Origin: a phage
NCBI GenBank assembly: GCA_036930585.1
Contig: GCA_036930585.1_3066.1
Length of the DNA: 64,000 nucleotides
Reading direction: 5' to 3' (one strand)
In this document: positions 1,764-60,949 of the stretch, one piece after another
Position numbering within the stretch: the first letter of the stretch is position 1
How the letters are laid out: the number at the start of each line of letters is the position of its first letter
Made by a program: the position numbers and the translations under genes
Notes under the pieces: model-generated
Database searches by the model: none
Seen by the model: only the letters and a program-made list of their open reading frames with translations
What the model was told of the DNA's origin: nothing

Positions 1764-2562
1764 TATACACCTCATAGAACTTTTCATCAGGAATCCAACC
1801 GCGTTTAAATTCATTAAATGCTCGGCCGAATAATTTTGAATTCACAGTTATATTATTAACTGATTTCCATTTAGCAACTCCCGTTCGTTTATAATGATCG
1901 GGGTCATATTTCGTGACGTACCATTCATATAAATTTGGTATTAATTTTACAGCCTCTGGATTTGTCGCTGATTTATTATACCATGGTTTCGCTTTTTCAA
2001 GTTCAGCTGCTTTTGCAGTAGCAGCAACAGTATTTCCAATACCAACTAATTTTTCAGCTTTAATGCGTGGGTCATTAACATGAAGACGAAAAACTTCGCC
2101 TTTTTCATTTTTAAAGCATGTCATGCCTTTAATTCCAGGAAGCTTAACACCTTTATTAACGCCGCACCATTCCTTTGGGTTAAATGATCCTTTAATTAAT
2201 AAGGCGCATTTACCCGATTTAATACTTCTCATTAAAACTTTATTTTTCATAAAGTTTTTTGACCATTCAGATACTGCTCTTTGATGGTAAATTCTAGCAA
2301 TTTCATATAATTTACTAGAACGTAAATATTTTTCAGTGTTTAACATTCTATTCATCGCATATGCCATTTCACGATTACGATGAATTTTATATAGTAGAAA
2401 ATGTGCTAAAAAGTGTTCACGAAAAGTCAGTTTCACCAAATTTTCTTTATCATCAGAACCTCCCATTGATCTTGGAAGGATATGATGAATTTCACCCTTA
2501 AATTTAGAAACGCGGGTTTTACCCCGCGCTATTAAGTCATTATAGATTTTTTCGTAATTCAC
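1744..2562 (-). CDS. mobA: HNH homing endonuclease (MobA-like), 272 aa, sitting between gene 39 and gene 60
   Basis: HNH motif region EIHHILPRSMGGSDDKENLVKLTFREHFLAHF; overlaps the 3' end of 39 and the 5' end of 60; only GTG available as start (no in-frame ATG near 5' end). Confidence 0.7.
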   Translation of the reverse strand: MNYEKIYNDLIARGKTRVSKFKGEIHHILPRSMGGSDDKENLVKLTFREHFLAHFLLYKIHRNREMAYAMNRMLNTEKYLRSSKLYEIARIYHQRAVSEWSKNFMKNKVLMRSIKSGKCALLIKGSFNPKEWCGVNKGVKLPGIKGMTCFKNEKGEVFRLHVNDPRIKAEKLVGIGNTVAATAKAAELEKAKPWYNKSATNPEAVKLIPNLYEWYVTKYDPDHYKRTGVAKWKSVNNITVNSKLFGRAFNEFKRGWIPDEKFYEVYNEICKN

Positions 2563-4090
2563 CTACTGTTATCCATTTACCATTAATCTGTACTTCATCA
2601 TTTTCATTTACGATAATTGTATCGCCATTTAGTTCGAAAGTAAACCACTCGCCATCTTCTTTTTCTTCAAACGCCTTTTCACCGAGAACTAATCCAGTGA
2701 TTGCGCAAATATCAAACAATTCTTTGTTTTTAAGCATATCAGCATATGACATACCCCAACTGTTGAGAACTTTACCGCGCAATGGATAACCACCATGAAG
2801 TTCTTTATCACGAACATCAATAAGATATCCGATAGCAGAATCACCCTCAGTCAAGAAAAGAGTAGTGTCAGCATCTTTACCGCAAAGATTCGCTTTAATG
2901 TGTTTATGAACCTTAGCTTTAGAAGCCTTTTTAGCTGCTTTAGTTTCTGCTGCCTTTTCTGCCGCCAATTTACGAGCCAAAGCAGCTTCAATAATCGGCA
3001 TTAGAATTGCTTCATTATTTAGAATAGCACGTGAAATCTTTTTAGCATCAAGTTGAATATGACTACGGATTTCACCAAATGGAGAAGTCAAACGCTCTTT
3101 AGTTTGAGAATCAAATCGCATGTTTTTCATATCACGGACAAACATAACGATAGTCAAACATTCTTTAACGCGTGCTTTAGTCACATCAATTTTGAACTTA
3201 CGTTTGATTTGTGGAATAAGGTCTTCACAAATATCATCCATAACACAGTCAATGTGATGGCCACCATTCTTAGTGTGAATGTTATTCACATAAGTTAATT
3301 GACGAAAACCATCCGGTGAACGACCAACCGCAATAGAGCAATTTTCTTGTTCTTGAACGATAGCATGTTCATCATATTGGCGTGCATATTTCTTAAAATT
3401 GCCCTGAACCTTTTTACCATTAAAGGTAAATTGAATATCAGGATAAACTACTGCAAGTGTCTGGAGACGATCTAGTGTAATGTCAAGATAAACTTGGGAC
3501 AGCTCATTAGTTTCAAATGACATAAAATCAGGAATGAAAGTAACACGAGTTCCTTTCCATTTTCCAGGAATAGTTTCCCATGATTTATTTTCCATGCCAT
3601 TTGAACAACGAACTACAATATTATTTTGACCATCACCAGTTTCACCGACAAACATCACAGAAAAAATGTTTGTCAAACTAGAACCAACACCATTCATACC
3701 ACCGGTGACACGTTCTTTATCATCACCAAAGTTACCACCTGCTTTTGGAATAGTCCAGGCAGCAACAGGACCAGGAATTTCTTCACCAGTAGGTGTTTTG
3801 ACCATCGCTTGTGGAATACCGCGACCGTTATCTTCAACTGTTACTTGATTGTTTTTAATAGTAACATTAATTTTATTTGCGAATTTAAACTTAGTACGAA
3901 TACCTTCATCTACTGAGTTATCGATAATTTCATCAATAAGCTTAACAAGACCAGGTACATACTGAACACTTTCCCATTTACCAAACAGAAAGCGCTCATG
4001 CATTTCATTAGCAGAAGAGCCAATATACATGCCGCTACGCTTTTTGATATGTTCAATATCGCTCAGAATTTTAATTTCATTCTTAATCAT
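2540..4090 (-). CDS. 39: DNA topoisomerase II large subunit gp39 (GyrB-like ATPase), 516 aa
   Basis: translation MIKNEIKILSDIEHIKKRSGMYIGSSANEMHERFLFGKW...; GHKL ATPase motifs (VEDNGRGIP); ATG at 4090 preferred over track GTG at 4093. Confidence 0.9.
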   Translation of the reverse strand: MIKNEIKILSDIEHIKKRSGMYIGSSANEMHERFLFGKWESVQYVPGLVKLIDEIIDNSVDEGIRTKFKFANKINVTIKNNQVTVEDNGRGIPQAMVKTPTGEEIPGPVAAWTIPKAGGNFGDDKERVTGGMNGVGSSLTNIFSVMFVGETGDGQNNIVVRCSNGMENKSWETIPGKWKGTRVTFIPDFMSFETNELSQVYLDITLDRLQTLAVVYPDIQFTFNGKKVQGNFKKYARQYDEHAIVQEQENCSIAVGRSPDGFRQLTYVNNIHTKNGGHHIDCVMDDICEDLIPQIKRKFKIDVTKARVKECLTIVMFVRDMKNMRFDSQTKERLTSPFGEIRSHIQLDAKKISRAILNNEAILMPIIEAALARKLAAEKAAETKAAKKASKAKVHKHIKANLCGKDADTTLFLTEGDSAIGYLIDVRDKELHGGYPLRGKVLNSWGMSYADMLKNKELFDICAITGLVLGEKAFEEKEDGEWFTFELNGDTIIVNENDEVQINGKWITVGELRKNL

Positions 4091-6347: not shown

Positions 6348-6893
6348 TTAATTCAAAATAGCTACCACCGCACTACGAGGTACTACACTAAAATCTCCTG
6401 CATGGACAACGTTCAGAAGCTCAACACCATCTTCAATCCACTGGTCTGTTACCCAACCACAGATAGGATTATCAAAAGGACGACGGATAGACACAGCAGC
6501 ACACAACAGGTCTGTAGGGTCTTGTTCTTCAACTTCTTGGAACAGGATGAACTCATCTTCATAAACCAGGTTTTTCTTTATTTTGTTATTATCTAACCGG
6601 CGACCGTGGATGACGTAAGATTTGTCAAACCACTCACTTTTGGCAAATTCTTCAACAATAAATTCGCCTTCGCCAAAAACATCAGTCAGAGTTTTATGAC
6701 CAGAAATCAAGGCATTAGTTTTAATTTTAGGTTCAACCAGTTTGTAGGTTTTGCCGATTTCAATAGCGGTAGTCATAGTAGGTTCCTTAATTTCCAGTGG
6801 TTTAACAGGGCATACATAAGTACTTACAACGTCAAAATCAATCAGTTTAGCTGCCGGATTCGGTGTGTATTCAGGATTATAATTAAATTTCAT
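6348..6893 (-). CDS. hypothetical protein, 181 aa, paralog of MotB-like gene
   Basis: shares C-terminal motif VTDQWIEDGVELLNVVHAG with 5780-6271 product. Confidence 0.55.
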   Translation of the reverse strand: MKFNYNPEYTPNPAAKLIDFDVVSTYVCPVKPLEIKEPTMTTAIEIGKTYKLVEPKIKTNALISGHKTLTDVFGEGEFIVEEFAKSEWFDKSYVIHGRRLDNNKIKKNLVYEDEFILFQEVEEQDPTDLLCAAVSIRRPFDNPICGWVTDQWIEDGVELLNVVHAGDFSVVPRSAVVAILN

Positions 6894-6895
6894 AA

Positions 6896-7393
6896 TTATC
6901 TCATTTCAATAAAATCTACAAGTTCAGCATGGGATTTACGGAACATTACTTGATGCCCGCCAATGATAACTTGGTCATCTGGTACTTCGTATACAGCAAG
7001 ATAAAATCCTTTCGAAGCTAATTCTTCACGCTCTTCTCGTGTGAACCATCTCATCATATCATATTCGCTAGCGAAAGCAAAATGATAAAGAGCTATAAAC
7101 CATCCTGGAATATGATATTCTACTCCAACATAATCTTTCTTGAACTTAGTATTAATTACTATATTAGCGTTTTTAACTAATAGTTTATCTTCGTGTGGTA
7201 AAGGAATTCTTTTATTATCGCTATGATGCATAAAATTAGGTCTGTCATAACCTACGTGTAATAGCCACTCTTCGCTCCATGAATCTATTATACTCCTGTA
7301 CGGCGTTATTTGAACACAAAGATTTCGACGTATTGTTATAGCATCTTCACAATCAAGAATACTAAACGATGATTCAACACGATAAATTTTCAT
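6896..7393 (-). CDS. hypothetical protein, 166 aa
   Basis: ATG at 7393 (MKIYRVESS...) preferred; track TTG start at 7432 lies inside the promoter. Confidence 0.5.
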   Translation of the reverse strand: MKIYRVESSFSILDCEDAITIRRNLCVQITPYRSIIDSWSEEWLLHVGYDRPNFMHHSDNKRIPLPHEDKLLVKNANIVINTKFKKDYVGVEYHIPGWFIALYHFAFASEYDMMRWFTREEREELASKGFYLAVYEVPDDQVIIGGHQVMFRKSHAELVDFIEMR

Positions 7394-14531: not shown

Positions 14532-14556
14532 AAAAAGGACTCCCGAAGGAGTCCTT
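14532..14556 (-). terminator. stem-loop terminator downstream of soc
   Basis: aaaaaggactcccgaaggagtcctt. Confidence 0.5.
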
Positions 14557-15427: not shown

Positions 15428-16240
<813 letters not shown>

Positions 16241-28792: not shown

Positions 28793-29014
28793 TTAAATTA
28801 GTACTATTTGTCGGGTGAAAATTGTCAATCCATCTGCATTAATTGACTTAACGACCGCGGTAAAGTGTTTTTGTTCTGGGTGAACTAATTTTTGAAATTC
28901 TACCTGAAATTTTAGTTGAAGGTTTTCTGGTAAATCGAAAAGTGTTTCTGTTGCAGAAAGATTATATTTTTCTTTAAGAGACGCCATGTATTCTTGCGGA
29001 GTTATAGCAGTCAT
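28793..29014 (-). CDS. hypothetical protein, about 73 aa, in the regA-43 intercistronic region
   Basis: ATG at 29014 directly after regA stop (MTAITPQEYMASLKEKYNLSATETLFDLPENLQLKFQ...); track start at 29056 overlaps regA. Confidence 0.45.
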   Translation of the reverse strand: MTAITPQEYMASLKEKYNLSATETLFDLPENLQLKFQVEFQKLVHPEQKHFTAVVKSINADGLTIFTRQIVLI

Positions 29015-35670: not shown

Positions 35671-36871
35671 ATTTTGTAATAATGTCAAACTGTTCTTTAA
35701 AGCAGAAGCTTGAATCTTGATGCTGATACAAAAATTCATATGCTTTTTCTCGCTCACGGTCATAAAGAGCTCGGTCAGATGACAGTTCTTTAATACGCTC
35801 GAATGTTGATTCCATGTCATTTTCATCAAACCAAATGATACCGCTATCATGCGAGGTCAAAGGAGTATTATCAACACGGAATTTTAAATTTTCGCCAGTA
35901 GATTTCCAAAATACCGGAATTGTTCCACATGCACCAAGCTCGAGATGAGTATATTCTAAAGAGCGCTGTAGATATTTTTTATCCAACTTACTCAACTGAT
36001 AACCAAAACCGGATTTACTCATACGTTCAAGCATTTCGCTATTTACATAACGGTCAAGAATTTGCGTTGGCAAATTAGGAGCAATTTTAATTTGGTCTAC
36101 TTGATGAAGACGATAATACTCGTATGGAATTCCTTTTTCTTTAATAGGAATGAACGCTGGAGAACGTTCCAGACCTTCCATAATAGTACTTAGTCCTGCA
36201 GGTTTAAGATGTTTTTCGTGAAAATCAAACATCTGATAAAAACCTTTCCATGTAGTCGTACGACCAATCCAACGGTTGATATTCATATTAATTTCAGAAA
36301 CATCTTTCCAGTAGGTTGACCGAACCTTCGCAATATCCATAGGAGGCTGAAAGTTATATACGGTCGGTGCTTCTTCAATATCATCAAACAGAGAAACAGT
36401 TTCTGGATACCATTCTTTCATCAGAACTTTATTAAAATCACCATTATCAGAATGACTAAAAATAACATCAGCTCGACGAACAGTTTCTTCTAATCCCAAA
36501 TTTCGACGCAAAGAAAGAGAAGAATGGTCATGTTGATAAACTACAACACGAACAGAAGGTTTAATGTTATCAATAATTTTTTTATAGTTATTAATAGTGT
36601 CTTCTTCAACCGAAGTAGCAGGAACTGAATTGATAATTAGAATATCACAATCATTTACCAGCTTAAGTGTTTTATCGTATTCTTTTGCCAATAAAACCGG
36701 AATTGAAAATGATTTATAATCATGCGCGCAATTACGAGTAAATGATTTATCTTTAGCATAAACCAAAGTCACTTCATGACCATTTTTAATAAACCAATCA
36801 CGTTGCTCGAGTGAGAATTTTGTTACACCACAACCTTCAAGACCTCGAGCCATAAAAATACATGCTTTCAT
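35669..36871 (-). CDS. agt: DNA alpha-glucosyltransferase, 400 aa
   Basis: MKACIFMARGLEGCGVTKFSLEQRDWFIKNGHEVTLVYAKDKSF... Confidence 0.9.
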   Translation of the reverse strand: MKACIFMARGLEGCGVTKFSLEQRDWFIKNGHEVTLVYAKDKSFTRNCAHDYKSFSIPVLLAKEYDKTLKLVNDCDILIINSVPATSVEEDTINNYKKIIDNIKPSVRVVVYQHDHSSLSLRRNLGLEETVRRADVIFSHSDNGDFNKVLMKEWYPETVSLFDDIEEAPTVYNFQPPMDIAKVRSTYWKDVSEINMNINRWIGRTTTWKGFYQMFDFHEKHLKPAGLSTIMEGLERSPAFIPIKEKGIPYEYYRLHQVDQIKIAPNLPTQILDRYVNSEMLERMSKSGFGYQLSKLDKKYLQRSLEYTHLELGACGTIPVFWKSTGENLKFRVDNTPLTSHDSGIIWFDENDMESTFERIKELSSDRALYDREREKAYEFLYQHQDSSFCFKEQFDIITK

Positions 36872-36922
36872 TTAATATCCTCTTTGTTTTGGTTTATTTT
36901 ACCAAAAAATTTATAAAGCAAT

Positions 36923-36942
36923 ATAGGAGCCGAAGCTCCTAT
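36923..36942 (-). terminator. stem-loop upstream of alpha-gt
   Basis: ataggagccgaagctcctat. Confidence 0.45.
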
Positions 36943-37115
36943 CCGCATAATACACCGTATAGAGGCTCATTAGAGCTTCTAAATTTTATGCGCTTATATT
37001 TTATAGTTCCTTCTGCTTTAGCTTTATCATGAGACTCTTTAAAGAGTCTCATCATTTCCTTTTTAGAGGAACGAATTTTATTATAATCTATTTCAGAAGT
37101 CTGGGTGTTCATCTT

Positions 37116-37319
37116 TCATAGTTGCCACCATTTTTTGACTTGATAGGAATCAACCCACACTTTCATATTAGGGTCTGCTCTTACAATAGGAGGATTAACT
37201 TCTTTAATTGAACTATCGTGGTATTCTTTTTCAGAAATTTTCACACAAAGATGACCATTCAAAGATTCAGTAAATCCTGCATTAATTTTAAGACGCTTGA
37301 ATTTTACGCGTGTAAGCAT
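37116..37319 (-). CDS. hypothetical protein, 67 aa
   Basis: ATG at 37319. Confidence 0.45.
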   Translation of the reverse strand: MLTRVKFKRLKINAGFTESLNGHLCVKISEKEYHDSSIKEVNPPIVRADPNMKVWVDSYQVKKWWQL

Positions 37320-37605
37320 CAATCATATCCTCAATCTGCGATCTAGTAGTCTTCCAAAGAATACTAATGAGTTCATCGTTATATGGCTGTTTTAGAATAT
37401 CCCGACTTTTCTTGATAGCATATTCGTATTGAGCAAAATTATTATTTTCAGCTGCGATCTGAGCATGCTTATAAAGACGATTCAGTTCGCGTTTGTTTTT
37501 AGACAATAACTTATTTGCTTTTCTTTCTGCTTCAAGACGGTTCTTTTCTTCAATAGAAGAAATAAGCTTTTCCACTTCATCATTAATTTCGGGTTTATCA
37601 GTCAT
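37288..37605 (-). CDS. hypothetical protein, 105 aa
   Basis: ATG ORF. Confidence 0.5.
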   Translation of the reverse strand: MTDKPEINDEVEKLISSIEEKNRLEAERKANKLLSKNKRELNRLYKHAQIAAENNNFAQYEYAIKKSRDILKQPYNDELISILWKTTRSQIEDMIDAYTRKIQAS

Positions 37606-37606
37606 A

Positions 37607-37825
37607 TTATTTCTCTAATATAAAATAAAAATCATCATCTGTTAAATGATATCTGTAATTTAATTCTACACCATTAGATTTAAAAGCGGTATCATACGGA
37701 TTTTCTGGATCAATATCAATGTCAAGAGCTAAAACTTCCCTGAGATACATTTTAAGTAAATAGGGAATAGCTTCAACTTCAGGTATTTCTTCCAAGAATC
37801 CGGAGAGGTTAATCGTTAGCCTCAT
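37607..37825 (-). CDS. hypothetical protein, 72 aa
   Basis: ATG ORF overlapping gene 55 stop. Confidence 0.5.
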
Positions 37826-38366
37826 ATAAAAAATCCAAACTAGGAGAATCGTCTACAACACTTTTCTTTTCAGCCCCCGGTGTTCTATAGGTTGATTCTT
37901 CGTAATGCGTCATTTTATCGTAGATGTCTTGAATAAAAGTTTCATCTACTAACGCAACCATATCGTCGTCACGACTGTCATAGACATTGTGAACGAAGTA
38001 ACTATATTTCTTTGCAACTTCCTTACGTTCTTTTTTAATACGTTGGACGAATGCATTAAAACAAGCTTGAGTTATATATGCATGTGGGTTTTTATATTTC
38101 GTTTCATCAAAATTATGAAGCCCCTTAATAGAAGCTTCTATACCATCTGCAATCATTTCTTGTTTCCAAGACTGGGTGTATCCTGAAAAGTTGAAACGTT
38201 TAGATAAGCCTTCTGCAATAAGCATAATGGCTAATCCGATAGTATCATTCTGACGAACTACTTTATTTGGGTCTTTATTATTTGCTAATTCTGTTTTCCA
38301 ATCAATAATAGCTTGTAAAAGCTCTTTATTGTTTACGTAATTATATTTAGGCTTAGTTTCTGACAT
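37809..38366 (-). CDS. 55: late-transcription sigma factor gp55, 185 aa
   Basis: ATG at 38366 ([58 protein letters not shown]...). Confidence 0.9.
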
Positions 38367-38444
38367 TTTCACCTCTTAGCTCAATTCATAGATCTATTAT
38401 ATCATAATATTTGAAGATCTATCTTAAAGCATAGAGGATATCAG

Positions 38445-38714
38445 TTATCTAAGTAAACAGTATGCTTGGAATACTTTCTCCATCATCTTTTTAAATTCAT
38501 GAATATCTATATAATGACTAGTTAGATCAGCATGATATAAAAAGTCTAAAAACTTTTCATGTGTACTAACATATTCACTTTCATTTAATTCAGAAACATG
38601 GCTTTCCCAATATCCAACACCAGTCTTATTTGGGAAAAATGAAATTTTCATGTATTTGTCAACATAGAAAATGCCATAATTTTCAATAGTAATAGAAATA
38701 TTAATAAATTTCAT
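38445..38714 (-). CDS. hypothetical protein, 89 aa
   Basis: ATG ORF. Confidence 0.5.
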   Translation of the reverse strand: MKFINISITIENYGIFYVDKYMKISFFPNKTGVGYWESHVSELNESEYVSTHEKFLDFLYHADLTSHYIDIHEFKKMMEKVFQAYCLLR

Positions 38715-38926
38715 ACATTCATCAACTTAGCCGCTTCAAGAGCTGCATCTAGTGAATCAAATTGATCAACATATTCAATCAATTCGCCGTAATTAGCATA
38801 TAACCACCATTGGCTAAATTCATACTCAAGGATGAATCCGTTTCCTTCAATTTGAGTTAAACCAATGCCATTTGTATTTACTTCATACCAAGCAAGACGT
38901 AAATCGTTAATAAGAGCTTCGTTCAT
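38711..38926 (-). CDS. hypothetical protein, 71 aa
   Basis: ATG ORF. Confidence 0.5.
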   Translation of the reverse strand: MNEALINDLRLAWYEVNTNGIGLTQIEGNGFILEYEFSQWWLYANYGELIEYVDQFDSLDAALEAAKLMNV

Positions 38927-38928
38927 AA

Positions 38929-39255
38929 TTATACCTTAGTAATTTTCAGGTCTGCAAATTTTTTCTTGCGTTGATTTTTCATGCGACGAATAGTTTTATC
39001 GGAAATTTCATGCTTTTGATAAGCTTTAGATTCTACACCAAAAGCTTTAACATCAAATTCTGACAAGATATATTGAACCAACAATTCACGGACAGTATTG
39101 CGTCCAATCTTCTGATCATTCTGTTTCATCGTCTGATGAAGCTCTTTTTCCCATTTATCCAAAATTTGAGGAGTTACAATATCGCCTTTTTCTAGCAAAG
39201 AAACTACTTTATCATATGCGTAAGAATTAATGACGTTTTTAATTTGAATAGTCAT
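38929..39255 (-). CDS. hypothetical protein, 108 aa
   Basis: ATG ORF. Confidence 0.5.
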   Translation of the reverse strand: MTIQIKNVINSYAYDKVVSLLEKGDIVTPQILDKWEKELHQTMKQNDQKIGRNTVRELLVQYILSEFDVKAFGVESKAYQKHEISDKTIRRMKNQRKKKFADLKITKV

Positions 39256-39293
39256 ACATTATCCTCAATTACGTTAAAATTTTATTATCCAAA

Positions 39294-39309
39294 AAGGGCC
39301 GAAGCCCTT
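39294..39309 (-). terminator. stem-loop (aagggccgaagccctt)
   Basis: perfect 6-bp stem, GAAG loop. Confidence 0.45.
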
Positions 39310-39508
39310 AGCTAAACTTTTTGGCACCCTTCCAGCCTTCGTACATCATTGCGACTGACAATGACAAAGCTCCTTCACATGCTGCATACTTATTATTCCA
39401 GAACCAATTTAGAAAAACTTCATCCTCAATACCATTGTGTTTCATGTTCTGGAAAAATTTGGCGCGTTCTTCAGCAATTCGCTGCGATAATTTAGATTCA
39501 GGATTCAT
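39308..39508 (-). CDS. hypothetical protein, 66 aa
   Basis: ATG ORF. Confidence 0.5.
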   Translation of the reverse strand: MNPESKLSQRIAEERAKFFQNMKHNGIEDEVFLNWFWNNKYAACEGALSLSVAMMYEGWKGAKKFS

Positions 39509-39640
39509 TTAAATTTCCCAATTGCCATTTTCATCAATAAATTTAATCCAGTCATTTACTGACCACTTAGTTGTATCGCCTTTTGGAGTAACATTTAAAG
39601 TATATAACCCCTGCTTAAAAAGCATTCGTTTGATATTCAT
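39509..39640 (-). CDS. small hypothetical protein, 43 aa
   Basis: ATG at 39640 with GAGGA SD (MNIKRMLFKQGLYTLNVTPKGDTTKWSVNDWIKFIDENGNWEI); the longer track ORF start overlaps the upstream gene. Confidence 0.4.
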   Translation of the reverse strand: MNIKRMLFKQGLYTLNVTPKGDTTKWSVNDWIKFIDENGNWEI

Positions 39641-39647
39641 ATTTTCC

Positions 39648-39941
39648 TCAGCTATAACGATAACACTCGTTTGATTTACGTTTAGCAACTCGTTGAGAAG
39701 TATTATAATCAAAATCATCGTCAATGTAAACTGATTTTTTCAACTTTCTTACTTCACCGCGTAATTGACGATTTAACTCATCTTTAACTTCTGAATCAAT
39801 ACCTTTCATTCTACGCCATTTATCTGAGCGAAAAATGTTTTCAACCATATCTTTATGACTTACAGCATCAGGAGCTTTACGCTTTCCGAAATAGTCATAA
39901 TCACGAACTTTCAAGTCTTTACGACGATACGTTTTACCCAT
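39648..39941 (-). CDS. hypothetical basic protein, 97 aa
   Basis: ATG at 39941 with AAGGAA SD. Confidence 0.45.
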   Translation of the reverse strand: MGKTYRRKDLKVRDYDYFGKRKAPDAVSHKDMVENIFRSDKWRRMKGIDSEVKDELNRQLRGEVRKLKKSVYIDDDFDYNTSQRVAKRKSNECYRYS

Positions 39942-40116
39942 GGAGTTTAATTTCCTTAGCAACTGAACTAAATGCAGCACGATCGCAAATCATGTGTTTA
40001 TGTAACTTAAGTATAAGATAATAAACATCATAACCATTTACGTAAGTAACACGAACAGCATTACCATTAATGAGATAATACTGCCCCTTTTTAATTTCTT
40101 TATCAACCATAACCAT
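39934..40116 (-). CDS. hypothetical protein, 60 aa
   Basis: ATG ORF. Confidence 0.45.
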   Translation of the reverse strand: MVMVDKEIKKGQYYLINGNAVRVTYVNGYDVYYLILKLHKHMICDRAAFSSVAKEIKLHG

Positions 40117-40145
40117 ATCAATTCCTCAAAGGCAATTCATATGTT

Positions 40146-40175
40146 AATAATACCACAGTTTGAGCTCGTTGTAAA
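40146..40175 (-). promoter_or_regulatory. early promoter (GTTTAC-18-TATTAT)
   Basis: minus strand GTTTACaacgagctcaaactgtggTATTAT. Confidence 0.5.
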
Positions 40176-40274
40176 CAACTTTGTGAAAATTATTTTAGGG
40201 AATGATAAGAAGGGAACGATAGCTTAGAATGGTAATATACAGAATGTGAGAAAGAAGGACCCAGAGGGCCCGTC

Positions 40275-40598
40275 TTAGTCTTCTATGATATCTCTATCAT
40301 ATCCAAGTGAAATGAGAGTTTCTTTGAAGTGTTTAATGTTCTTTTGTCTAGAATCATTAATGAAAATGACTGGATAACGAATGTTAAGAGATGTGAATCC
40401 AGCGCGTTTAGCAAGAGATACAATCAGCGGACGATCATACTCAATCTTACCGTTATTTGTAAGAACTTTATAGAAAGTAAAAGGAGCATTGAGCTCCTTT
40501 AGAAGTTTTGTAACTGATTGACATCCAGGACAACGACCTACTTCTTCGGGGATGCCATAGATTTCAATCTTATTCTTTAAGTTCGAGTTTTGTTCCAC
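40275..40598 (-). CDS. nrdH: glutaredoxin-like protein (CPGC active site), NrdH-like; start uncertain (GTG at 40598 with AAGGA SD proposed)
   Basis: KIEIYGIPEEVGRCPGCQSVTKLLKELNAPF...; long track ORF N-terminus overlaps upstream gene and is low-complexity. Confidence 0.55.
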   Translation of the reverse strand: MEQNSNLKNKIEIYGIPEEVGRCPGCQSVTKLLKELNAPFTFYKVLTNNGKIEYDRPLIVSLAKRAGFTSLNIRYPVIFINDSRQKNIKHFKETLISLGYDRDIIED

Positions 40599-40881
40599 GA
40601 GAAATAATTCCTTGATAAGCCCAGTATGGCGGGTTAACAGAATCCTCACCAGAGTTTTCTTCAGGAAAATAAACCTGGATAACAAATCCAGATGCATCAA
40701 AGGTAAAATAAACCGTAGGCAGTTCACCTAACAATTCGGCACGAGCATTAATTTCTTCGAGATCTCGTTCACGTCCAGCCCAAAAACTAGGATTTAGACT
40801 ACATTCGTAAAAATAATAGTCATTACCGAACATATCAAAACCCTTCCAACTCTCTACTACATACCGCTCAAAACTAATCAT
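40570..40881 (-). CDS. hypothetical protein, 103 aa
   Basis: ATG ORF. Confidence 0.5.
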   Translation of the reverse strand: MISFERYVVESWKGFDMFGNDYYFYECSLNPSFWAGRERDLEEINARAELLGELPTVYFTFDASGFVIQVYFPEENSGEDSVNPPYWAYQGIISRGTKLELKE

Positions 40882-40883
40882 AA

Positions 40884-41099
40884 TTAAGCCTTTTTATCAA
40901 GAACAGAATTCAGCTTGTTAGTAATTTTATCCAGACGCTCATTGAACTCGCTAGAAGATAAACCCTTTTCTGGAGAAATCAAACTAATCACGAAAAATAT
41001 AGCAATAAAAGGAATAAGGAAAATAGCTCCAACTGCCATAAACAGAAAGAATGTTACAGTTGTAAGAAAATCAGCTAAACCTTTACGAAATTTATACAT
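40884..41099 (-). CDS. small membrane protein, 71 aa
   Basis: hydrophobic N-terminal segment. Confidence 0.5.
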   Translation of the reverse strand: MYKFRKGLADFLTTVTFFLFMAVGAIFLIPFIAIFFVISLISPEKGLSSSEFNERLDKITNKLNSVLDKKA

Positions 41100-41214
41100 A
41101 TTTTACCCTTAATCGATTAACCGAGCATTGATAAGTACTAAACTATACTGCGAATAAAATTCTGGACCAAAATGAAAAATCATATCATTTATAGTATCCA
41201 TAATGTAATTCAAT

Positions 41215-41652
41215 TTAATCATGTGTCCACACCCCATCGGTATTTGACCAAAGCCGCTGATTATCTGATCCTCGCCACAGCTTTTTGGTCGGAAGATTTT
41301 TCTCATACTTCCCATCAATAATAACATCAACATATTTAAGCATTTCTAGCTGTTTAATATCTTCAAACTTATATCCTGTCCACAACCAAATGTCTTTCTC
41401 AGGAAATCTTGCTTTAACCCAAGAAACTAAATTTGAAATCTCTTCTCGGTTCTGTGGATAAAGCGGGTCACCACCGGTTAAGGTAAGGCCTTGGATATAT
41501 GATTTGCTTAAATGGGACGCAAGTTCTTTAACGGTATTCATAGTGAATAACTGTCCGTTACGAGCATTCCAAGTACTACGATTATAACAACCTTCGCATT
41601 TATGCAAACAACCTGTAACGAAAAGAACGGTCCTGCATCCAGGGCCATTCAC
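41215..41652 (-). CDS. nrdG: anaerobic ribonucleotide reductase activase NrdG (radical SAM), lacking a canonical ATG start
   Basis: VNGPGCRTVLFVTGCLHKCEGCYN (CxxxCxxC); only GTG at 41652 available; in-frame TAG TAG 7-8 codons upstream. Confidence 0.7.
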   Translation of the reverse strand: MNGPGCRTVLFVTGCLHKCEGCYNRSTWNARNGQLFTMNTVKELASHLSKSYIQGLTLTGGDPLYPQNREEISNLVSWVKARFPEKDIWLWTGYKFEDIKQLEMLKYVDVIIDGKYEKNLPTKKLWRGSDNQRLWSNTDGVWTHD

Positions 41653-41716
41653 AAAGCAGCACGGGATTGTCTACTAGAGAGGTTCCCCGTTTAGACCGGT
41701 TTTACATGAGCCTGAA

Positions 41717-42263
41717 TTAAATTAACTCATACGCCTGGAATGCATCGTATACATCTTTTTCTGTTTTAGATTGGGCATAATTCAATGCATCAGCGATTTG
41801 CCATTTTTCTGCGTCCTCAATATGTTTTGCGTAGGTACGTTTAACATAAGGAGAAAGTACTTTATCTACATTCGCAAAAGTCGTTCCGCCGTATTGGTGA
41901 GAAGCAACCTGTGCAGTAATTTGTGCCATAATTGCAGTAGCAACACCGATTGATTTAGGAGTTTCAATCTGTGCATTACCAAGCTTAAATCCGTTTTCAA
42001 GCATTCCTTTTAAATCTACTAAACAACAATTAGTAAATGGCAATGATATACTGTAATCTAAATCATGGAAATGAATAATTCCGCTTTCATGCGCTTTCAT
42101 AATAAAAGACGGGACCATATTTTTGGCAATGTGTTTAGACACAATACCAGGCCATAAGGTCCCGTTGAGTTGGAAAAACACGAGAATCTTTATTAGCATT
42201 CTCGTTTAAAAGGTCTTTATTAGTTTTATGAATCAATCCTTCAATTTCTTTTTCAATTGTCAT
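41717..42263 (-). pseudogene. nrdD: nrdD (anaerobic ribonucleoside-triphosphate reductase) remnant: only about the first 180 codons, with a +1 frameshift near codon 37 and no C-terminal catalytic/glycyl-radical region
   Basis: frame 1 MTIEKEIEGLIHKTNKDLLNENANKDSRVFPTQRDLMA then stop; second frame continues GIVSKHIAKNMVPSF...IHFHDLDYS...VYDAFQAYELI-stop; homology to NrdD N-terminal region ends abruptly about 65 nt before nrdG. Confidence 0.8.
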
Positions 42264-42733
42264 TTTAAACTCTTTCTAAGCTGCTTCTTGAATGAAGCTA
42301 TTAATTGTGTTTTGGTGTCAGATTCATTATATTCAAATCCTCTTTGAAGCATCTCGGCCATCATTTCCTCTTTTCCGAAACGAGAAAATTCCTTTGATTT
42401 ATCTCCAACAAAGTTAGGGTGAATATTATTTTGGGTGTAATCGGATTTTAAATAAGTAAGTAAATTTTCTAACCATTCAAGATAATCAACACCTTGTCCC
42501 TTTAAGCCAGAACGATTAAATTTATGCTTCATTTGACCTTCTGCGGCATTGCATAGATTACAAAGCAATCCACGTACCTTTCCTGCTTTTGGTCCATTTA
42601 ATTCATGGTCATGATCAAGATGATTAGCTTGAACATCAGGATTTAGTTCTCGTTGGCAAATTAAGCATTTACCGTTTTGTGCATCATAAAATTTCTGTTT
42701 TTCTTCTTTATATAATTTGCCAGTCAATAACAT
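42260..42733 (-). CDS. 49: endonuclease VII (Holliday junction resolvase) gp49, 157 aa
   Basis: MLLTGKLYKEEKQKFYDAQNGKCLICQRELNPDVQANHLDHDHELNGPKAGKVRGLLCNLCNAAEG... Confidence 0.95.
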   Translation of the reverse strand: MLLTGKLYKEEKQKFYDAQNGKCLICQRELNPDVQANHLDHDHELNGPKAGKVRGLLCNLCNAAEGQMKHKFNRSGLKGQGVDYLEWLENLLTYLKSDYTQNNIHPNFVGDKSKEFSRFGKEEMMAEMLQRGFEYNESDTKTQLIASFKKQLRKSLK

Positions 42734-42774
42734 AATAAACCCTTACCTTAAATAGATAAGGGTATTTATTATTT

Positions 42775-43260
42775 TCAAGTATTGTAAAACATTTGATTCA
42801 ATCGCTTATATTGCCGAATCTTTTGGTCAGAAAAAGAAATTTGGGTTTCAAGCCATTCAATGTACTCTGCGGCAGCTTGCATCAGGTTACCTTCATAGCC
42901 ATCGTTATTTTCTTGCGCAGCTAATTTAGCTAATGCGTATGAAATACGTTCACCTTGAAAAGCGGCTTTAGGCTTCTGAACATCTTGGCTAGTTCTCTCT
43001 ACAACTTCTTCAATTTCGCCATTTTCTACTGATTCAGTATTCCACAAACACCAGTATGTAATTGGCTTATCATAGATGTTAATAATCTTTCCGTCAGAAA
43101 GTTCAATTTCAATAATTCCAGTGTCAGGCTCTATATCATCTTCACATTCTTTTACAAGTTCACGAACTTTAAAGACAGTACCTGCACTAAGTTCCGGCCA
43201 GTAATTACACAGCCCTGTATCAGCACGATTAATTCTAAACCACTTATCTACTGTAATCAT
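42775..43260 (-). CDS. pin: Pin (inhibitor of host Lon protease), 161 aa
   Basis: ATG at 43260 gives 161 aa as in T4; position next to gene 49. Confidence 0.7.
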   Translation of the reverse strand: MITVDKWFRINRADTGLCNYWPELSAGTVFKVRELVKECEDDIEPDTGIIEIELSDGKIINIYDKPITYWCLWNTESVENGEIEEVVERTSQDVQKPKAAFQGERISYALAKLAAQENNDGYEGNLMQAAAEYIEWLETQISFSDQKIRQYKRLNQMFYNT

Positions 43261-43382
43261 GTCCCATCTCCATATCAATTAAGTCATTTATCGTTGGTTC
43301 ATTATATACTGTTTCTTCATCAGTGTAAACCGGTTCTTCCGGCTCTGGCTCTACAGTTTCCCATCTAGCCGCCCACCAAGGT

Positions 43383-43553
43383 TTAACCCCGAAGCTTATT
43401 AAGTTCTTCATCATCAATCCAGGATTCTAGTCCTGATGGCAGGTCACATTCAATTTCCCAAAGAAGTTCTTCAATTTTTTGAAGACGATCTAGTTCTTCA
43501 GCAGGAATAGTAACCATTGACGGAGCTCTTGCTACATTAATATCGTAAATCAT
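43383..43553 (-). CDS. small hypothetical protein, about 56 aa
   Basis: ATG at 43553. Confidence 0.35.
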   Translation of the reverse strand: MIYDINVARAPSMVTIPAEELDRLQKIEELLWEIECDLPSGLESWIDDEELNKLRG

Positions 43554-43555
43554 AT

Positions 43556-43771
43556 TTACCCCAGTTTGACCATACAATCGCCGTATTTCCACTTAGAAAT
43601 AGACTTTTCACCATTAGAATAATAAACTTCAAGTTTAGCACGATTATTTTTAATTTGAATAACCTTTGCTGTCATCAAAGTTCCATACCCATAATAAACT
43701 GCAACTTCATCACCTACATATACCGCACTTCCGCGGTAATCGTGAATATAGTCAGTTCCTTCGAGCATCAT
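43556..43771 (-). CDS. hypothetical protein, 71 aa
   Basis: ATG ORF overlapping nrdC stop. Confidence 0.5.
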   Translation of the reverse strand: MMLEGTDYIHDYRGSAVYVGDEVAVYYGYGTLMTAKVIQIKNNRAKLEVYYSNGEKSISKWKYGDCMVKLG

Positions 43772-44031
43772 TTAAAGTATTCCCGCAATTGGTCAAATCC
43801 ACCAATATGACTTCCATCTGGAGCGAATACCTGCGGCATTGTCAATCCAATTTGAGTATCACGACCTAGTTTAGTCAGAAGCTCAGCGATTTTCTCATCA
43901 TCAAAAACACCTTTTTCCGGCATAATGTTGATAAATTCAAACGGCTGTTTCTTCACGGTCAAAAGACGTTTTGCATTATCGCAATACACACATTTATGGA
44001 TGTTGCTATCATAACCATATACTTTAAACAT
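43768..44031 (-). CDS. nrdC: thioredoxin/glutaredoxin NrdC, 87 aa
   Basis: MFKVYGYDSNIHKCVYCDNAKRLLTVKKQPFEFINIMPEKGVFDDEKIAELLTKLGRDTQIGLTMPQVFAPDGSHIGGFDQLREYFK. Confidence 0.9.
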   Translation of the reverse strand: MFKVYGYDSNIHKCVYCDNAKRLLTVKKQPFEFINIMPEKGVFDDEKIAELLTKLGRDTQIGLTMPQVFAPDGSHIGGFDQLREYFK

Positions 44032-44032
44032 A

Positions 44033-44275
44033 TTATTCCTTAATTCCTAGTACTTGTTTAAAAGTCTCGTCGTAATCAAGACTTTGGCCCGTTTGTTCTT
44101 TATGTTTGTATATAATATCACTTACTTCTGATAGCATATTTTTATATGAACGAGTTAAAGCAGATTTAAGCACGCTGTATCTATCAGGAAATTTACCATG
44201 TTCATTATAATAAGCTATTGCTAATTCACGGACTGCCTTTTCAGCAGCCTCCATATATTCTTTACGCTTGGTCAT
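44033..44275 (-). CDS. hypothetical protein, 80 aa
   Basis: ATG ORF. Confidence 0.5.
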
Positions 44276-44277
44276 TT

Positions 44278-44667
44278 TTAATCCAAAATATTATTAGGCA
44301 TTGGTTGAACACTCACAAGTTCTTTAAAGAACTCAGTAGAGTCAGGCAATTTAACCATTTCCGGAGCATGCTTACTGAATTTATGTTTACATTGACGGCA
44401 TTTATATTCAAGCTCTGGTTTACGCCAGTTAATCAATTGAACTTGTTCAGTTCCACATTCAGGGCAATTAGGAACGTTTTTAGAAGCTCTTTCACGTCGT
44501 TCAACCATAGCCATAATAGCATCCCATGCTGGAGGTTTAAAATCTAAATCGTCGCAGCCGTGAATCTTTCCACGCATTTCCATATCATCTTCCTCACCAG
44601 CCATAATAATTTTAATTAAACTGGAATTACTTGAAGCTGCAATGTCTTCTAATAGACGCTTTTTCAT
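44278..44667 (-). CDS. hypothetical zinc-binding protein, 129 aa
   Basis: CPECG...CRQCKH cysteine pairs. Confidence 0.5.
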
Positions 44668-45590
44668 TTCAATACCTCAATAGCATTACGTAAACCATTT
44701 GCTTTGGCGGTTAAAGCCTTAAGAACTTTAGTATGCTCTTCAATTTGTTTTTCAACTTCAGTCAAACGGACATTGAGATATTCACGTTCTTCTTTCATAG
44801 TATCATTTCCATGATTGGGTTTTGGTATAGGTTTAAATTCACTAGGGTCCTTTAATTTAATAACAAATTTAGTTTCAAACAGTGAAAGACCATAATTCGT
44901 ATTATCATCAAAGGATTTGACTACATCCATATCAGATAATAACACGCGCAAATTATAAGCCAAAGAACTAATAGTTTCATTGTGTTTATTAGCTTCGCGT
45001 GGTTTCATATACGGAAGATTTTTATATATCTCATGCGGAGCGCAAACGATAATTGACAATTCAAATTGTCCATTCTGGGACGATGGAATGAATTTAGCCG
45101 TAACCCAGTCTTTTACATTCACATTAATAGTACGGTTATCACCATGACAAAACAGTCTACGAGAATGCTTAAAAAGCATATTCACGTTATTATTGAATTC
45201 GTGTGAAAATTCACTAGCAAATTTTTCTTTACTATCTTTAGAAAACCATTCTTCTAAATAAGTTCTTTTCACGTCGTTAATAATATTAAATGTAACAACA
45301 CTAGCATTTGATACATTAGTCTTAATGTAGCTTGGATACATAAATTTTTTAACATTATTAACAGCTATCACAGAAGATAGTAATCGGGAACGTTTGAACC
45401 ACTCGAGCAAAGAACCAAGAGAATGTGAATACGCATTTTGTGTATCTTTACAAATATGGTTTTCCCATCCAATATAGTCTAAAAAATCACGAAGAATATT
45501 ATTGATTACTGCTCTGTGTCCGATCTGATAATTACGGTGTTTAGTAATAAGACTGTCAAAATAATCAATATAATGTTTACGAGTTTTCAT
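44664..45590 (-). CDS. hypothetical protein, 308 aa, member of tandem paralog family with C-terminal coiled coil
   Basis: MKTRKHYIDYF... N-terminus and C-terminal coiled coil shared with the next three genes. Confidence 0.6.
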   Translation of the reverse strand: MKTRKHYIDYFDSLITKHRNYQIGHRAVINNILRDFLDYIGWENHICKDTQNAYSHSLGSLLEWFKRSRLLSSVIAVNNVKKFMYPSYIKTNVSNASVVTFNIINDVKRTYLEEWFSKDSKEKFASEFSHEFNNNVNMLFKHSRRLFCHGDNRTINVNVKDWVTAKFIPSSQNGQFELSIIVCAPHEIYKNLPYMKPREANKHNETISSLAYNLRVLLSDMDVVKSFDDNTNYGLSLFETKFVIKLKDPSEFKPIPKPNHGNDTMKEEREYLNVRLTEVEKQIEEHTKVLKALTAKANGLRNAIEVLK

Positions 45591-45642
45591 ATTCTTCTCA
45601 CTTGGTTAATGGTTTATACTCCGAGCCATCCTTGGCTTTAAA

Positions 45643-46644
45643 TTACTTAATTAACTGTAAAGCTTGTTCAAGACGATTAAGACGATTAACGGATTCTTCC
45701 CAAATCTTTTTAGCCTGCTCATATTCTTTCTGCGCTTTATTAGAAATTTCTAGAACTTCTTTATAAGCTTTTTCTAGTGCAATAACTTCTGGACGAATTT
45801 CTACTGGTTCAGGCGAATCGTCAAGACATTCCATTAGTTCCTCAAGGGTAGTTTCTTCTTTAGGAGTATTCACAATTTCATCACATTTTTGTTGGTAAAT
45901 TTCTTTATCAGTCGGTGAGTACGCACACTTTACTTCACGGAGACTAACTACAATTTTATATCCTTCCCAACCGCATATATTCTTAAAAGGATAAGTATGA
46001 ATATTTTCTACTGTTTCCATACAAAGTAATGCGGTCTCTAATTGACGAGTTATAGTGCTAGCAATTGAGAAAAATTTATTAATGTTCTTTTGATTAGCTT
46101 CTGGTGTAAAAAATCTGTAATTAATAAAAATAGCTACTTTGTTTTTATCAAGTTCATATTCTTCTGCTATAATCATATCATCAGCTAAGGGATGAATTTG
46201 ACGATAATCGCCATAACATAATTTAGAAGCTGATTTTAGAATTTGCTTCGTAAAACTCCTAAATTCACTAACCCAACGACGAGTAAAAATATTCTCAGGG
46301 TCTTCTTTAGTATTAAGATGATAAGTATTAACATCACCGAACCAATTATATCCTACTACATCTTTAGTTCGTTTAATTTCTTTCCCAAATTTACTAAGAA
46401 TATCTCTGTTGACTAAGTATGAAAGAAGACGAGACTCTTTAAAGGTTTTCTTGATAAGATCTTTATCTACACGACTAGAAATTTTACGAATTTCATGAAT
46501 AAATTTGCTGGAAGAAACAATACTTGCATCAGTATTGTTGAGCCACTGATTGATAATAGAAAGAACACTATTCTGACTAGACATAGGTTTAACTTTATCA
46601 TCAATAACGCTATTGAATGATTTGATATATTCGTTACGAGTCAT
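45643..46644 (-). CDS. hypothetical protein, 333 aa, tandem paralog family member
   Basis: ATG at 46644 with GAGGAG SD (MTRNEYIKSF...); track start at 46674 lies within the promoter. Confidence 0.6.
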   Translation of the reverse strand: MTRNEYIKSFNSVIDDKVKPMSSQNSVLSIINQWLNNTDASIVSSSKFIHEIRKISSRVDKDLIKKTFKESRLLSYLVNRDILSKFGKEIKRTKDVVGYNWFGDVNTYHLNTKEDPENIFTRRWVSEFRSFTKQILKSASKLCYGDYRQIHPLADDMIIAEEYELDKNKVAIFINYRFFTPEANQKNINKFFSIASTITRQLETALLCMETVENIHTYPFKNICGWEGYKIVVSLREVKCAYSPTDKEIYQQKCDEIVNTPKEETTLEELMECLDDSPEPVEIRPEVIALEKAYKEVLEISNKAQKEYEQAKKIWEESVNRLNRLEQALQLIK

Positions 46645-46672
46645 ATTAATCTCCTCAGTAGAAAGTAAGAAC

Positions 46673-46704
46673 ATTATACCACATCCTTGTGGTAAAGTAA
46701 ACTA
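46673..46704 (-). promoter_or_regulatory. early promoter; exact 32-nt repeat of the promoter at 1202-1233
   Basis: attataccacatccttgtggtaaagtaaacta identical at both sites. Confidence 0.5.
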
Positions 46705-47730
46705 GTTCAGTGCATTTAATGCATTGTTCAGTTTAGAACGTTGCTTCGTGAGATTTTTGACTTTTTCTTGTGCTTTTTCTAGCATCTTTTCAGCTTCTAG
46801 CATTTCATTGGTCGCTTTAACGAGTTCATCATCTACTGCCTTAAGAGACTTTTCAATCGCATCAGCGTGCCATTTTTCTACAGGTTTAAAATTTGAATTT
46901 TCAGTAGGAAGAAAACTCACTTTATTAAGTTTACATGCATCTATGTTACTTGAACTGTACATCCAACATTTAGGATCGTTTGATAAGTAATTGGATAAAT
47001 TTAAATTTAAGGTATCTTGCACTTCCTGCTTTTTCTCTTGCGGGACTTCATCCTTTCTCAAAAAATCGTATTTAAATGAAACGATCATATCAAGTTCATA
47101 CGTTGTTGTATGTTCCCAATTTCGCTCAAAATGAGGTAAAATCTTAGACTGAACAGCGGCAACAACATCCATATACTTAAATGCTTCTGTCAACTGTGAT
47201 TTAAGGCATTCACAAATTGAAAGAGAATTTTTTGTATTAGGTTTAAAGCTAATTCGTGCAGTTCTATTATTTTCTTTTAACGGTCTTACTTCCATCTGAA
47301 GAGTATAACCATCAAATTTCAGGTTCTTTAAGTTAATGTCAGAACCTTTTAATCGACTAGCCGTCGACAAAATTTGCTTTAATTGTCTACGGAACAGAGC
47401 AATAAATCTCCATTCAATGCGATAATGATTTGGATTGAAAAATCCAGATGATAAATCGACCTTACTCTGACCAACACCTTGAACAAATAGAGGATTTTTA
47501 TAATCAATAGTTTTACAGAAATCGGTGAGCTGTTCACGAGCAGTCATTTGAGTAATATACCCAGCTTCATTAAAATTACGCACCCATTCACTGCTGTTCA
47601 GATGTTTAAAGGCGTGAATGGAACAATTAACTTTACCAAGGTCTAAATTATTTTCGCACAAAAATGTCATAGCATCACGAGTATAGCTGGCATTACGAAC
47701 CATATCTTCAATTTGAGAACGAGTTTTCAT
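46702..47730 (-). CDS. hypothetical protein, 342 aa, tandem paralog family member
   Basis: MKTRSQIEDMV...; C-terminal coiled coil. Confidence 0.6.
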   Translation of the reverse strand: MKTRSQIEDMVRNASYTRDAMTFLCENNLDLGKVNCSIHAFKHLNSSEWVRNFNEAGYITQMTAREQLTDFCKTIDYKNPLFVQGVGQSKVDLSSGFFNPNHYRIEWRFIALFRRQLKQILSTASRLKGSDINLKNLKFDGYTLQMEVRPLKENNRTARISFKPNTKNSLSICECLKSQLTEAFKYMDVVAAVQSKILPHFERNWEHTTTYELDMIVSFKYDFLRKDEVPQEKKQEVQDTLNLNLSNYLSNDPKCWMYSSSNIDACKLNKVSFLPTENSNFKPVEKWHADAIEKSLKAVDDELVKATNEMLEAEKMLEKAQEKVKNLTKQRSKLNNALNALN

Positions 47731-47738
47731 GGTGTTCC

Positions 47739-48626
47739 TTAAGATTTAAGTAAATCGATAATTTTAATTAACTTTTCACGCTCAGATTTAGCTTTACTAC
47801 TCAGTCCAGATAGTCTGAAAATTTCATCATCATATTGTTGAATAGAAATATTCAGTTCTTCAATCTGTTTATTAAAATAATCAATTTGTTCAGAATGTTT
47901 TTCGTTACTACGAACTGGTACAGGTTTCGTAGGCAATGTAGTTGAACTGGATTCATCCGGGCGATAAATTAAAATACAATTTGAACCAATCGGGCATTTA
48001 GCACCAGACACATATTCTAGTGTTCCAGCTTCTTTTAAAACTTCAAAAGCTAAACAGAGATGATGACCCATATTGACATAATCTGTAGAGTGAGCTCTGA
48101 TATAATAATCATCTCCACGAGTACTAAATTTAAAGCATTTAAGGTCTTCTGTATTATTAGTTTTAAAAATCATTTGTTTATCTAGACCTTTAGCTAATCG
48201 AGCGCCTAATGCTAATAATCGTCGTTGATTTTCCCACAAATCTGCGATCATTTGGTCAAATGATAATTTCGGCATTAGTCGACCATAAAGGTCATATCCT
48301 TTATTATAATTGCGAAGGATTTCACACGCATTAATACGAGACAACGCTCCAATTTTATTAAGTGCTTTCATAATGCGATTAGATAAAAGCATTCCAGACC
48401 CGTTTGTTCGTTGTAAATGTTTATCTAATCCAAACCCAATATCAACTTTAAACTTATCTAAAATTTCAGCATGAACATCTCTGTCAATAACATTCAAATC
48501 CAAAGTTGGGTTAAATCTATGAAAAAATTTATCTGGTTCTCCACGGCGAAGTACAGTCCATTCATTTGATTTTTTATTAACTAAAGATTTAATTACTGCA
48601 TTGACATTATTAATTACTACTGACAT
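47739..48626 (-). CDS. hypothetical protein, 295 aa, tandem paralog family member
   Basis: ATG at 48626; C-terminal coiled coil ...SEREKLIKIIDLLKS. Confidence 0.55.
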   Translation of the reverse strand: MSVVINNVNAVIKSLVNKKSNEWTVLRRGEPDKFFHRFNPTLDLNVIDRDVHAEILDKFKVDIGFGLDKHLQRTNGSGMLLSNRIMKALNKIGALSRINACEILRNYNKGYDLYGRLMPKLSFDQMIADLWENQRRLLALGARLAKGLDKQMIFKTNNTEDLKCFKFSTRGDDYYIRAHSTDYVNMGHHLCLAFEVLKEAGTLEYVSGAKCPIGSNCILIYRPDESSSTTLPTKPVPVRSNEKHSEQIDYFNKQIEELNISIQQYDDEIFRLSGLSSKAKSEREKLIKIIDLLKS

Positions 48627-60588: not shown

Positions 60589-60949
60589 TACAAGCTCTCA
60601 GTAAAGGTACGAGCGATAACGTCGCGCTGCTGTTCCGGAGTCAGAGAGTTAAAGCGAACTGCATAACCGGATACACGGATGGTCAGCTGCGGATATTTTT
60701 CCGGATGCTTAACTGCATCTTCCAGAGTTTCACGACGCAGAACGTTAACGTTCAGGTGTTGACCACCTTCAATTTTAACTGTAGGCTGTGGTTCAATTTC
60801 AATTTCACGGGCATGCAAACCGTAGAAAATTTCTGGGTCTACAAAAGAGTCCTCTTTAAAGGTTTAGAAACAATAATTCGTGCTTGAATACCATCTTCAA
60901 AATAAATAGTACCTTTATGTGTGCCTTCAAGAATTTGATATGCTTTCAT
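60588..60949 (-). pseudogene. grcA/yfiD-like autonomous glycyl-radical cofactor gene (T4 Y06I-type), interrupted by a 1-nt frameshift in a homopolymer run
   Basis: frame a [36 protein letters not shown]-stop; shifted frame [90 protein letters not shown] (glycyl radical motif RVSGYAV). Confidence 0.75.

Follow-up and report, generated by a model that had tools for sequence, protein, structure and literature searches.

The question raised by this locus is what became of nrdD, a gene of the anaerobic ribonucleotide reductase, in a T4-like phage whose DNA was analysed over a stretch of 64,000 nucleotides (GenBank assembly GCA_036930585.1, contig GCA_036930585.1_3066.1), referred to here as the window. 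The original prediction described a gene that begins normally and is interrupted by a +1 frameshift, an otherwise normal nrdD being implied. The current analysis supports the one-base mechanism of the shift but not the picture of the gene as a whole. A larger lesion had been missed, the gene ends after codon 179, and what is present is a 179-codon remnant of exon 1 followed by a 67-nt intron stub and a 5'-truncated nrdG. With a probability of about 0.85 in our estimate, the nrdD-nrdG anaerobic ribonucleotide reductase operon of this phage (Tequatrovirus) is a recent pseudogene remnant, produced by a deletion and by the duplication of a single C, both of which were tolerated.

The region around nrdD belongs to the genome of a T4-like phage (Tequatrovirus) whose genes lie on the minus strand. 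Many T4-type phages of Escherichia, Shigella and Yersinia match a 24-kb query with 96-97.5% identity, and no identical record has been found among these phage matches. The gene preceding nrdD is complete:

42260 to 42733, minus strand: gene 49 (endonuclease VII), intact, according to the open reading frame list and the gene 49 annotation in relatives

The Pfam family Endonuclease_7 has been identified on the gene call of gene 49 in the Logan contig described below. The TGA of gene 49 (42262-42260) overlaps the ATG of nrdD (42263-42261) in an ATGA arrangement that is also evident from the open reading frame list, and the overlap of an ATG at 42263 with the gene 49 stop had been correctly recognised before.

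The interruption of the nrdD reading frame is described by the following features:

42135 to 42263, minus strand: 42-residue open reading frame from the native nrdD start, MTIEKEIEGLIHKTNKDLLNENANKDSRVFPTQRDLMAWYCV*, comprising 38 correct NrdD residues, then WYCV and the stop
41717 to 42199, minus strand: 160-residue open reading frame in the shifted frame, comprising NrdD residues 39-179 and then two intron codons (..AFQAYE-LI*)
42150 to 42151, minus strand: extra C, CC against a single C in every relative, giving a +1 frameshift in codon 38

The stop that ends the 42-residue frame is situated at 42135-42137, and the longer frame contains GIVSKHIAKNMVPSF...HFHDLDYS.... In tblastn comparisons with the intact NrdD of RB51, residues 1-38 match at 100% over 42263-42150, and in another frame residues 30-179 match at 93% over 42175-41726, the two matches having a joint E-value of 2e-98. 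Homology to the N-terminal region of NrdD is thus distributed over two frames, and no uninterrupted NrdD reading frame, of the kind seen in relatives after splicing where an intron is present, is left in the window on account of the +1 shift and the stop. The assignment of the short frame to the NrdD N-terminus and the continuation of the protein in another frame, both proposed from the letters of the sequence, are borne out by these matches.

An extra nucleotide had been placed in the GCCTGG stretch, with re-sequencing and an alignment to T4 and other T-even nrdD genes named as the means of checking it. In a base-level alignment with seven relatives (T4, a T4 mutant, RB51, JB75, 236Ecol005PP, ES12 and TH58) exactly one extra base is observed. 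The sequence GGCTGG has become GGCCTGG at 42150-42151 (ATGG-CTGG has become ATGGCCTGG), the C of the coding strand being a G on the plus strand, and the shift follows codon 38. A 71-nt search returned 627 matching phage records with a best identity of 98.6% (70/71 with one gap), and the insertion occurs in 0 of the 627. The exact frameshift 26-27-mer has zero matches in IMG/VR, in metagenome contigs and in genome contigs (species-representative genomes).

The surviving coding part of nrdD has been delimited by comparison with an intron-less and an intron-bearing relative:

41725 to 42263, minus strand: nrdD exon-1 remnant, codons 1-179 and the first base of codon 180, ending at the group I 5' splice site

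Exon 1 measures 539 nt in the window as against 538 nt in relatives. Alignment with the intron-less RB51 and the intron-bearing T4 places the 5' splice site after ...TATGAGT, between ...GAGT and TAATT, at 41725. The homology to RB51 stops exactly where the T4 intron starts, the splice site follows a U, and the residues AFQAYE correspond to the end of exon 1 in comparison with both phages. The Pfam NRDD match (3e-35) covers only profile positions 18-141 of 562. Residues 180-605 of NrdD gave no tblastn match anywhere in the 64-kb window, and the catalytic barrel and the C-terminal glycyl-radical domain, located at about residues 180-605 in T4 and RB51, are consequently not represented in it.

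Beyond the end of exon 1 the following features have been identified:

41658 to 41724, minus strand: 5' stub of the nrdD (sunY-type) group I intron, 67 nt, 100% identical to 236Ecol005PP (L001 4077-4143)
41656 to 41657, minus strand: deletion junction, two bases (GC) matching neither flank of relatives
41215 to 41655, minus strand: nrdG remnant, codons 11-156 and the stop, without the ATG, the first 10 codons and the ribosome-binding site

The 67-nt stub is also identical to the 5' end of the intron in JB75. By our own reading of the Rfam alignment it starts at the 5' splice site and reaches roughly as far as the 5' strand of P6; P6', P7, P3', P8 and P9 are gone together with the I-TevII open reading frame. 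A stub that has no P7, P3', P8 and P9 cannot be a ribozyme. An Rfam scan of window positions 36000-48000 found no group I intron at E<=1, which is consistent with an intron reduced to a stub. The intact relative 236Ecol005PP gives 70.9 bits with RF00028 over L001 4041-4276, the gathering threshold being 50, and no complete group I catalytic core above this threshold is found in the window.

The extent of the loss is evident from the alignment with 236Ecol005PP, which runs over L001 3001-4143 and resumes over 6429-7283, so that 2285 bp are absent from the window; the same deletion pattern is obtained against JB75. The missing DNA corresponds to the remainder of the intron, the I-TevII gene, the whole of nrdD exon 2 (residues 180-605), with the catalytic and glycyl-radical parts of NrdD, and the first 30 nt of nrdG. 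I-TevII has no match anywhere in the 64-kb window. Examination of the junction against four nrdG alleles revealed no clean overlap indicative of microhomology and left two nucleotides unexplained, and the deletion looks like the product of illegitimate recombination. The 30-nt junction sequence is not present in the phage database as one contiguous match and has zero matches in IMG/VR, metagenome contigs and genome contigs.

The absence of exon 2 bears directly on a reading in which the shift is programmed, so that ribosomal +1 recoding or transcriptional slippage would restore a functional NrdD. The only point in its favour is that a frameshift falls early in a conserved gene. The frame downstream of the shift, however, stops after residue 179 within the intron stub and has neither a 3' splice site nor an exon 2 to lead to. 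The region is in a single frame in 627 of 627 relatives, and direct reading of the sequence reveals no known slippery motif at CUU AUG GCC UGG. Neither a conserved shift nor a functional full-length product is therefore in evidence, and programmed frameshifting is effectively refuted by the lack of exon 2.

In the nrdG remnant the coding sequence resumes at codon 11 (TTT GTG AAT GGC) at 41655. The CxxxCxxC radical-SAM motif is retained (CLHKCEGC), with Pfam matches to Fer4_12 (6e-50) and Radical_SAM. The native start codon, the ribosome-binding site and the N-terminus of NrdG are missing, and the only start left is a GTG in frame, in front of which no Shine-Dalgarno sequence can be seen. The remnant is probably not translated, and its product would be without a partner. 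The remnant is also a mosaic, the first ~60 nt being similar to RB51 and JB75 and the remainder to T4. In T4, nrdG adjoins mobC, which is absent from the window by tblastn.

The possibility that the two lesions arose in assembly or sequencing has to be weighed. The Logan assembly of SRA run SRR28171614, a separate k-mer-based assembly from the raw reads, contains a 20.8-kb contig (SRR28171614_192) whose alignment with the window runs for 15,488 bp at 100% identity, free of mismatches and gaps. The extra C and the deletion junction both lie within this stretch. Other contigs of the same run are 100% identical over 4,338 bp and 3,258 bp, again with no mismatch or gap. At the locus, SRR28171614_192 carries three gene calls, namely the identical 42-aa product, one of 133 aa (NRDD) and the 145-aa nrdG remnant (radical SAM). 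Such exact agreement of a separate k-mer assembly argues against an artefact of the assembler or of polishing, with the caveat that, if the record of the window was also built from SRR28171614, a systematic read error would be common to both assemblies. An error-free contig of 20.8 kb would nevertheless imply accurate reads. Both lesions are probably real and not assembly errors.

For the deletion, the competing explanation is a misassembly or a minority variant, the phage having a complete intron-containing nrdD with the +1 shift as its sole lesion. No other public sequence searched contains the junction, and the similar group I cores in td and nrdB, giving two to three similar places per genome, could confuse an assembler. 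However, the two assemblies are identical across the junction, exon 2 and I-TevII are both missing from the whole 64 kb, and the right-hand junction is located in nrdG and not in a repeat. We consider this explanation highly improbable.

For the extra C, the competing explanation is an error of sequencing or of the consensus, in which case the true phage would have GGCTGG in a gene still truncated by the deletion. This is suggested by the lack of the extra base in all 627 relatives and by two further single-base indels within genes, in dam and in a gene at the T4 vs.6 position, which lie in homopolymer runs and are found in no phage-database record searched:

15428 to 16231, minus strand: dam DNA adenine methyltransferase, one-base loss in the T-run at 15546-15550, last 33 residues replaced, open reading frame of 267 aa
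60588 to 60949, minus strand: grcA/yfiD-like glycyl-radical gene (T4 vs.6 position), one-base loss in the T-run at 60863-60865

Three single-base frameshifts within 64 kb could point to data prone to indels. The one-base loss in dam occurs in 0 of 180 phage records, and the Logan assembly of SRR28171614 also encodes the frameshifted Dam protein. The vs.6 gene is split into open reading frames of 36 aa and 76 aa, with a Pfam Gly_radical match of 8.5e-19, and its one-base loss is absent from all full-length matches in the phage database. The same vs.6 frameshift allele is, however, also encoded on a contig from run ERR7569065, which represents a different T4-like phage with 93% local identity and other gene content. 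Its presence in a different phage and run identifies it as a real circulating allele, and the recurrence in another sample argues that indels here are not generally errors. The separate k-mer assembly moreover reproduces the extra C inside a mismatch-free contig, an outcome that noisy long reads would not be expected to give, and the site is not a homopolymer in relatives, the change being from one C to two. Besides nrdD, comparison of the whole window with JB75 revealed four uncompensated single-base indels inside genes, and the window does not look generally indel-ridden overall. A sequencing error as the source of the extra C now seems less likely, and we regard it as unlikely, though not to the degree of a spurious deletion.

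Apparent frameshifts against JB75 at 28889 and 37103 have been set aside as common natural variants, found in 34 and 23 records respectively. Single-base length differences in A-runs at 14537, 36904 and 56580, again relative to JB75 (and to ES12 where covered), are intergenic and have otherwise identical 71-nt flanks. Logan contigs of two different runs share an end point within vs.6 (window position 60743). The sequence past about 60743 presumably resembles E. coli grcA closely, and the contig breaks may reflect k-mers common to host DNA, if host DNA was present in both samples. Comparison with JB75 also reveals an insertion of ~1.1 kb at 1566-2676 in the region of the topoisomerase gene 39. 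It carries an HNH match at 1921-2562 on the minus strand whose encoded protein is 30% identical to T4 MobC, and its product is probably a mobA-like free-standing HNH homing endonuclease.

Apart from the +1 shift, exon 1 has one private substitution (alignment column 427) and one dense patch of changes:

42041 to 42061, minus strand: cluster of 13 substitutions within 21 nt, encoding HDLDYSISLPF as against HDIDYSPALPF in most relatives, private among the 7 aligned

The Ser and Leu of this patch are unchanged although their codons differ at several bases. In a 35-nt search, Mosigvirus OLB35, whose nrdD is intact and intron-less, matched the patch at 100% over 34 nt, and about 40 further T4-like phages matched it at 97%. 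Its occurrence in intact nrdD genes rules out decay of a pseudogene as its origin. For a templated mutation, no donor is present in the window and none in IMG/VR. By these matches the patch is best described as a natural alternative allele and not as decay, and the mosaic looks like a gene-conversion exchange between genera.

On the preferred reading of the locus as a pseudogene remnant, an illegitimate deletion of ~2.3 kb connects nrdD intron position 67 with nrdG codon 11. It takes away the greater part of the ribozyme core, the gene of the homing endonuclease I-TevII, exon 2 of nrdD and the start of nrdG, and a single C is duplicated in codon 38 of the surviving exon 1. The native start yields only a 42-aa peptide and, as both the 3' splice site and exon 2 are missing, nothing is left to splice. 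Either lesion alone abolishes NrdD, and we infer that no NrdD activity would be possible. As the gene is already truncated by the deletion, the frameshift is not decisive for its function.

The nrdD gene of T4 is non-essential. The lesions are presumably tolerated because nrdDG is dispensable in aerobic growth or under the conditions of propagation, the phage probably relying on its own aerobic NrdAB or, when anaerobic, on the NrdDG of the host. The small number of private changes in exon 1, taken with the occurrence of the lesions in no other public relatives searched, indicates that both events are recent and lineage-specific. In the protein cluster, P0032 is another early-truncated nrdD N-terminal product, of 54 aa and ending out of frame, which hints that disruption of nrdD recurs.

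The genes nrdD, dam and vs.6, which are the three frameshifted genes absent from the phage database in that form, are all dispensable in T4. A doubtful extension of the preferred reading is that nrdD, nrdG and vs.6 were lost together, either with the GrcA-like protein being activated by NrdG or with all three serving one anaerobic function that is no longer needed. The basis for this is their co-occurrence in one genome, and the vs.6 allele is also found in the phage of ERR7569065.

A literature search returned nothing on SRR28171614, on OL964745, or on nrdD/nrdG deletions in Tequatrovirus. The specific allele combining deletion and frameshift is new, the loss of a dispensable phage gene and of a mobile intron being well known. 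The locus represents ordinary decay of a dispensable gene and opens no long-standing question. It should be annotated as an nrdD pseudogene remnant with an intron stub and a truncated nrdG, and not as a frameshifted but otherwise complete nrdD. It adds one more natural case of a T4-type phage discarding its anaerobic reductase operon along with a mobile intron. Poor growth under anaerobic conditions, for example in the gut, is predicted unless host enzymes compensate, and this could matter for use of such a phage in therapy.

Among known systems the closest is T4 nrdD (sunY), which has the same place after gene 49, the same ATGA overlap, the same 5' splice site and nrdG downstream, and to which exon 1 of the window is 94% identical. 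Unlike T4, the window lacks the greater part of the intron core, I-TevII, exon 2 and nrdG codons 1-10, and its exon 1 has the +1 shift. The mobile nrdD intron of T4, its I-TevII and the location of mobC between nrdD and nrdG have been described (PMC2988022), and no mobC separates the two remnants here.

A comparable, independent deletion is known in the T4 mutant clone T4_7t1 (OL964745; region 2035-3928), which keeps exon 1 but has lost exon 2 of nrdD together with the 5' portion of nrdG. It differs from the window in its breakpoints, in keeping the 5' part of the intron and an I-TevII fusion, in its nrdG remnant of 108 aa and in having no frameshift in exon 1, and it is labelled as a mutant clone. 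The viability of this deletion indicates that such losses across nrdD and nrdG are tolerated.

Single-base frameshifts by strand slippage in T4 are the subject of the Streisinger model, developed on the rII system. The extra base in nrdD resembles such events in duplicating its neighbour (C to CC), and in dam and vs.6 a single base has been lost from a T/A run. In relatives, however, the nrdD site does not form a run, which makes slippage a weaker explanation there.

In the nrdB intron of T4, I-TevIII has been crippled by a deletion, and the intron is regarded as carrying the remnant of a defunct mobile element in T-even phages (PMC2988022). The two cases are alike in the decay by deletion of an intron and homing endonuclease cassette in a T-even gene of nucleotide metabolism. 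They differ in that the T4 nrdB intron still splices and its host gene works, whereas the deletion in the window removes the ribozyme core and the downstream exon, and the host gene is lost with them.
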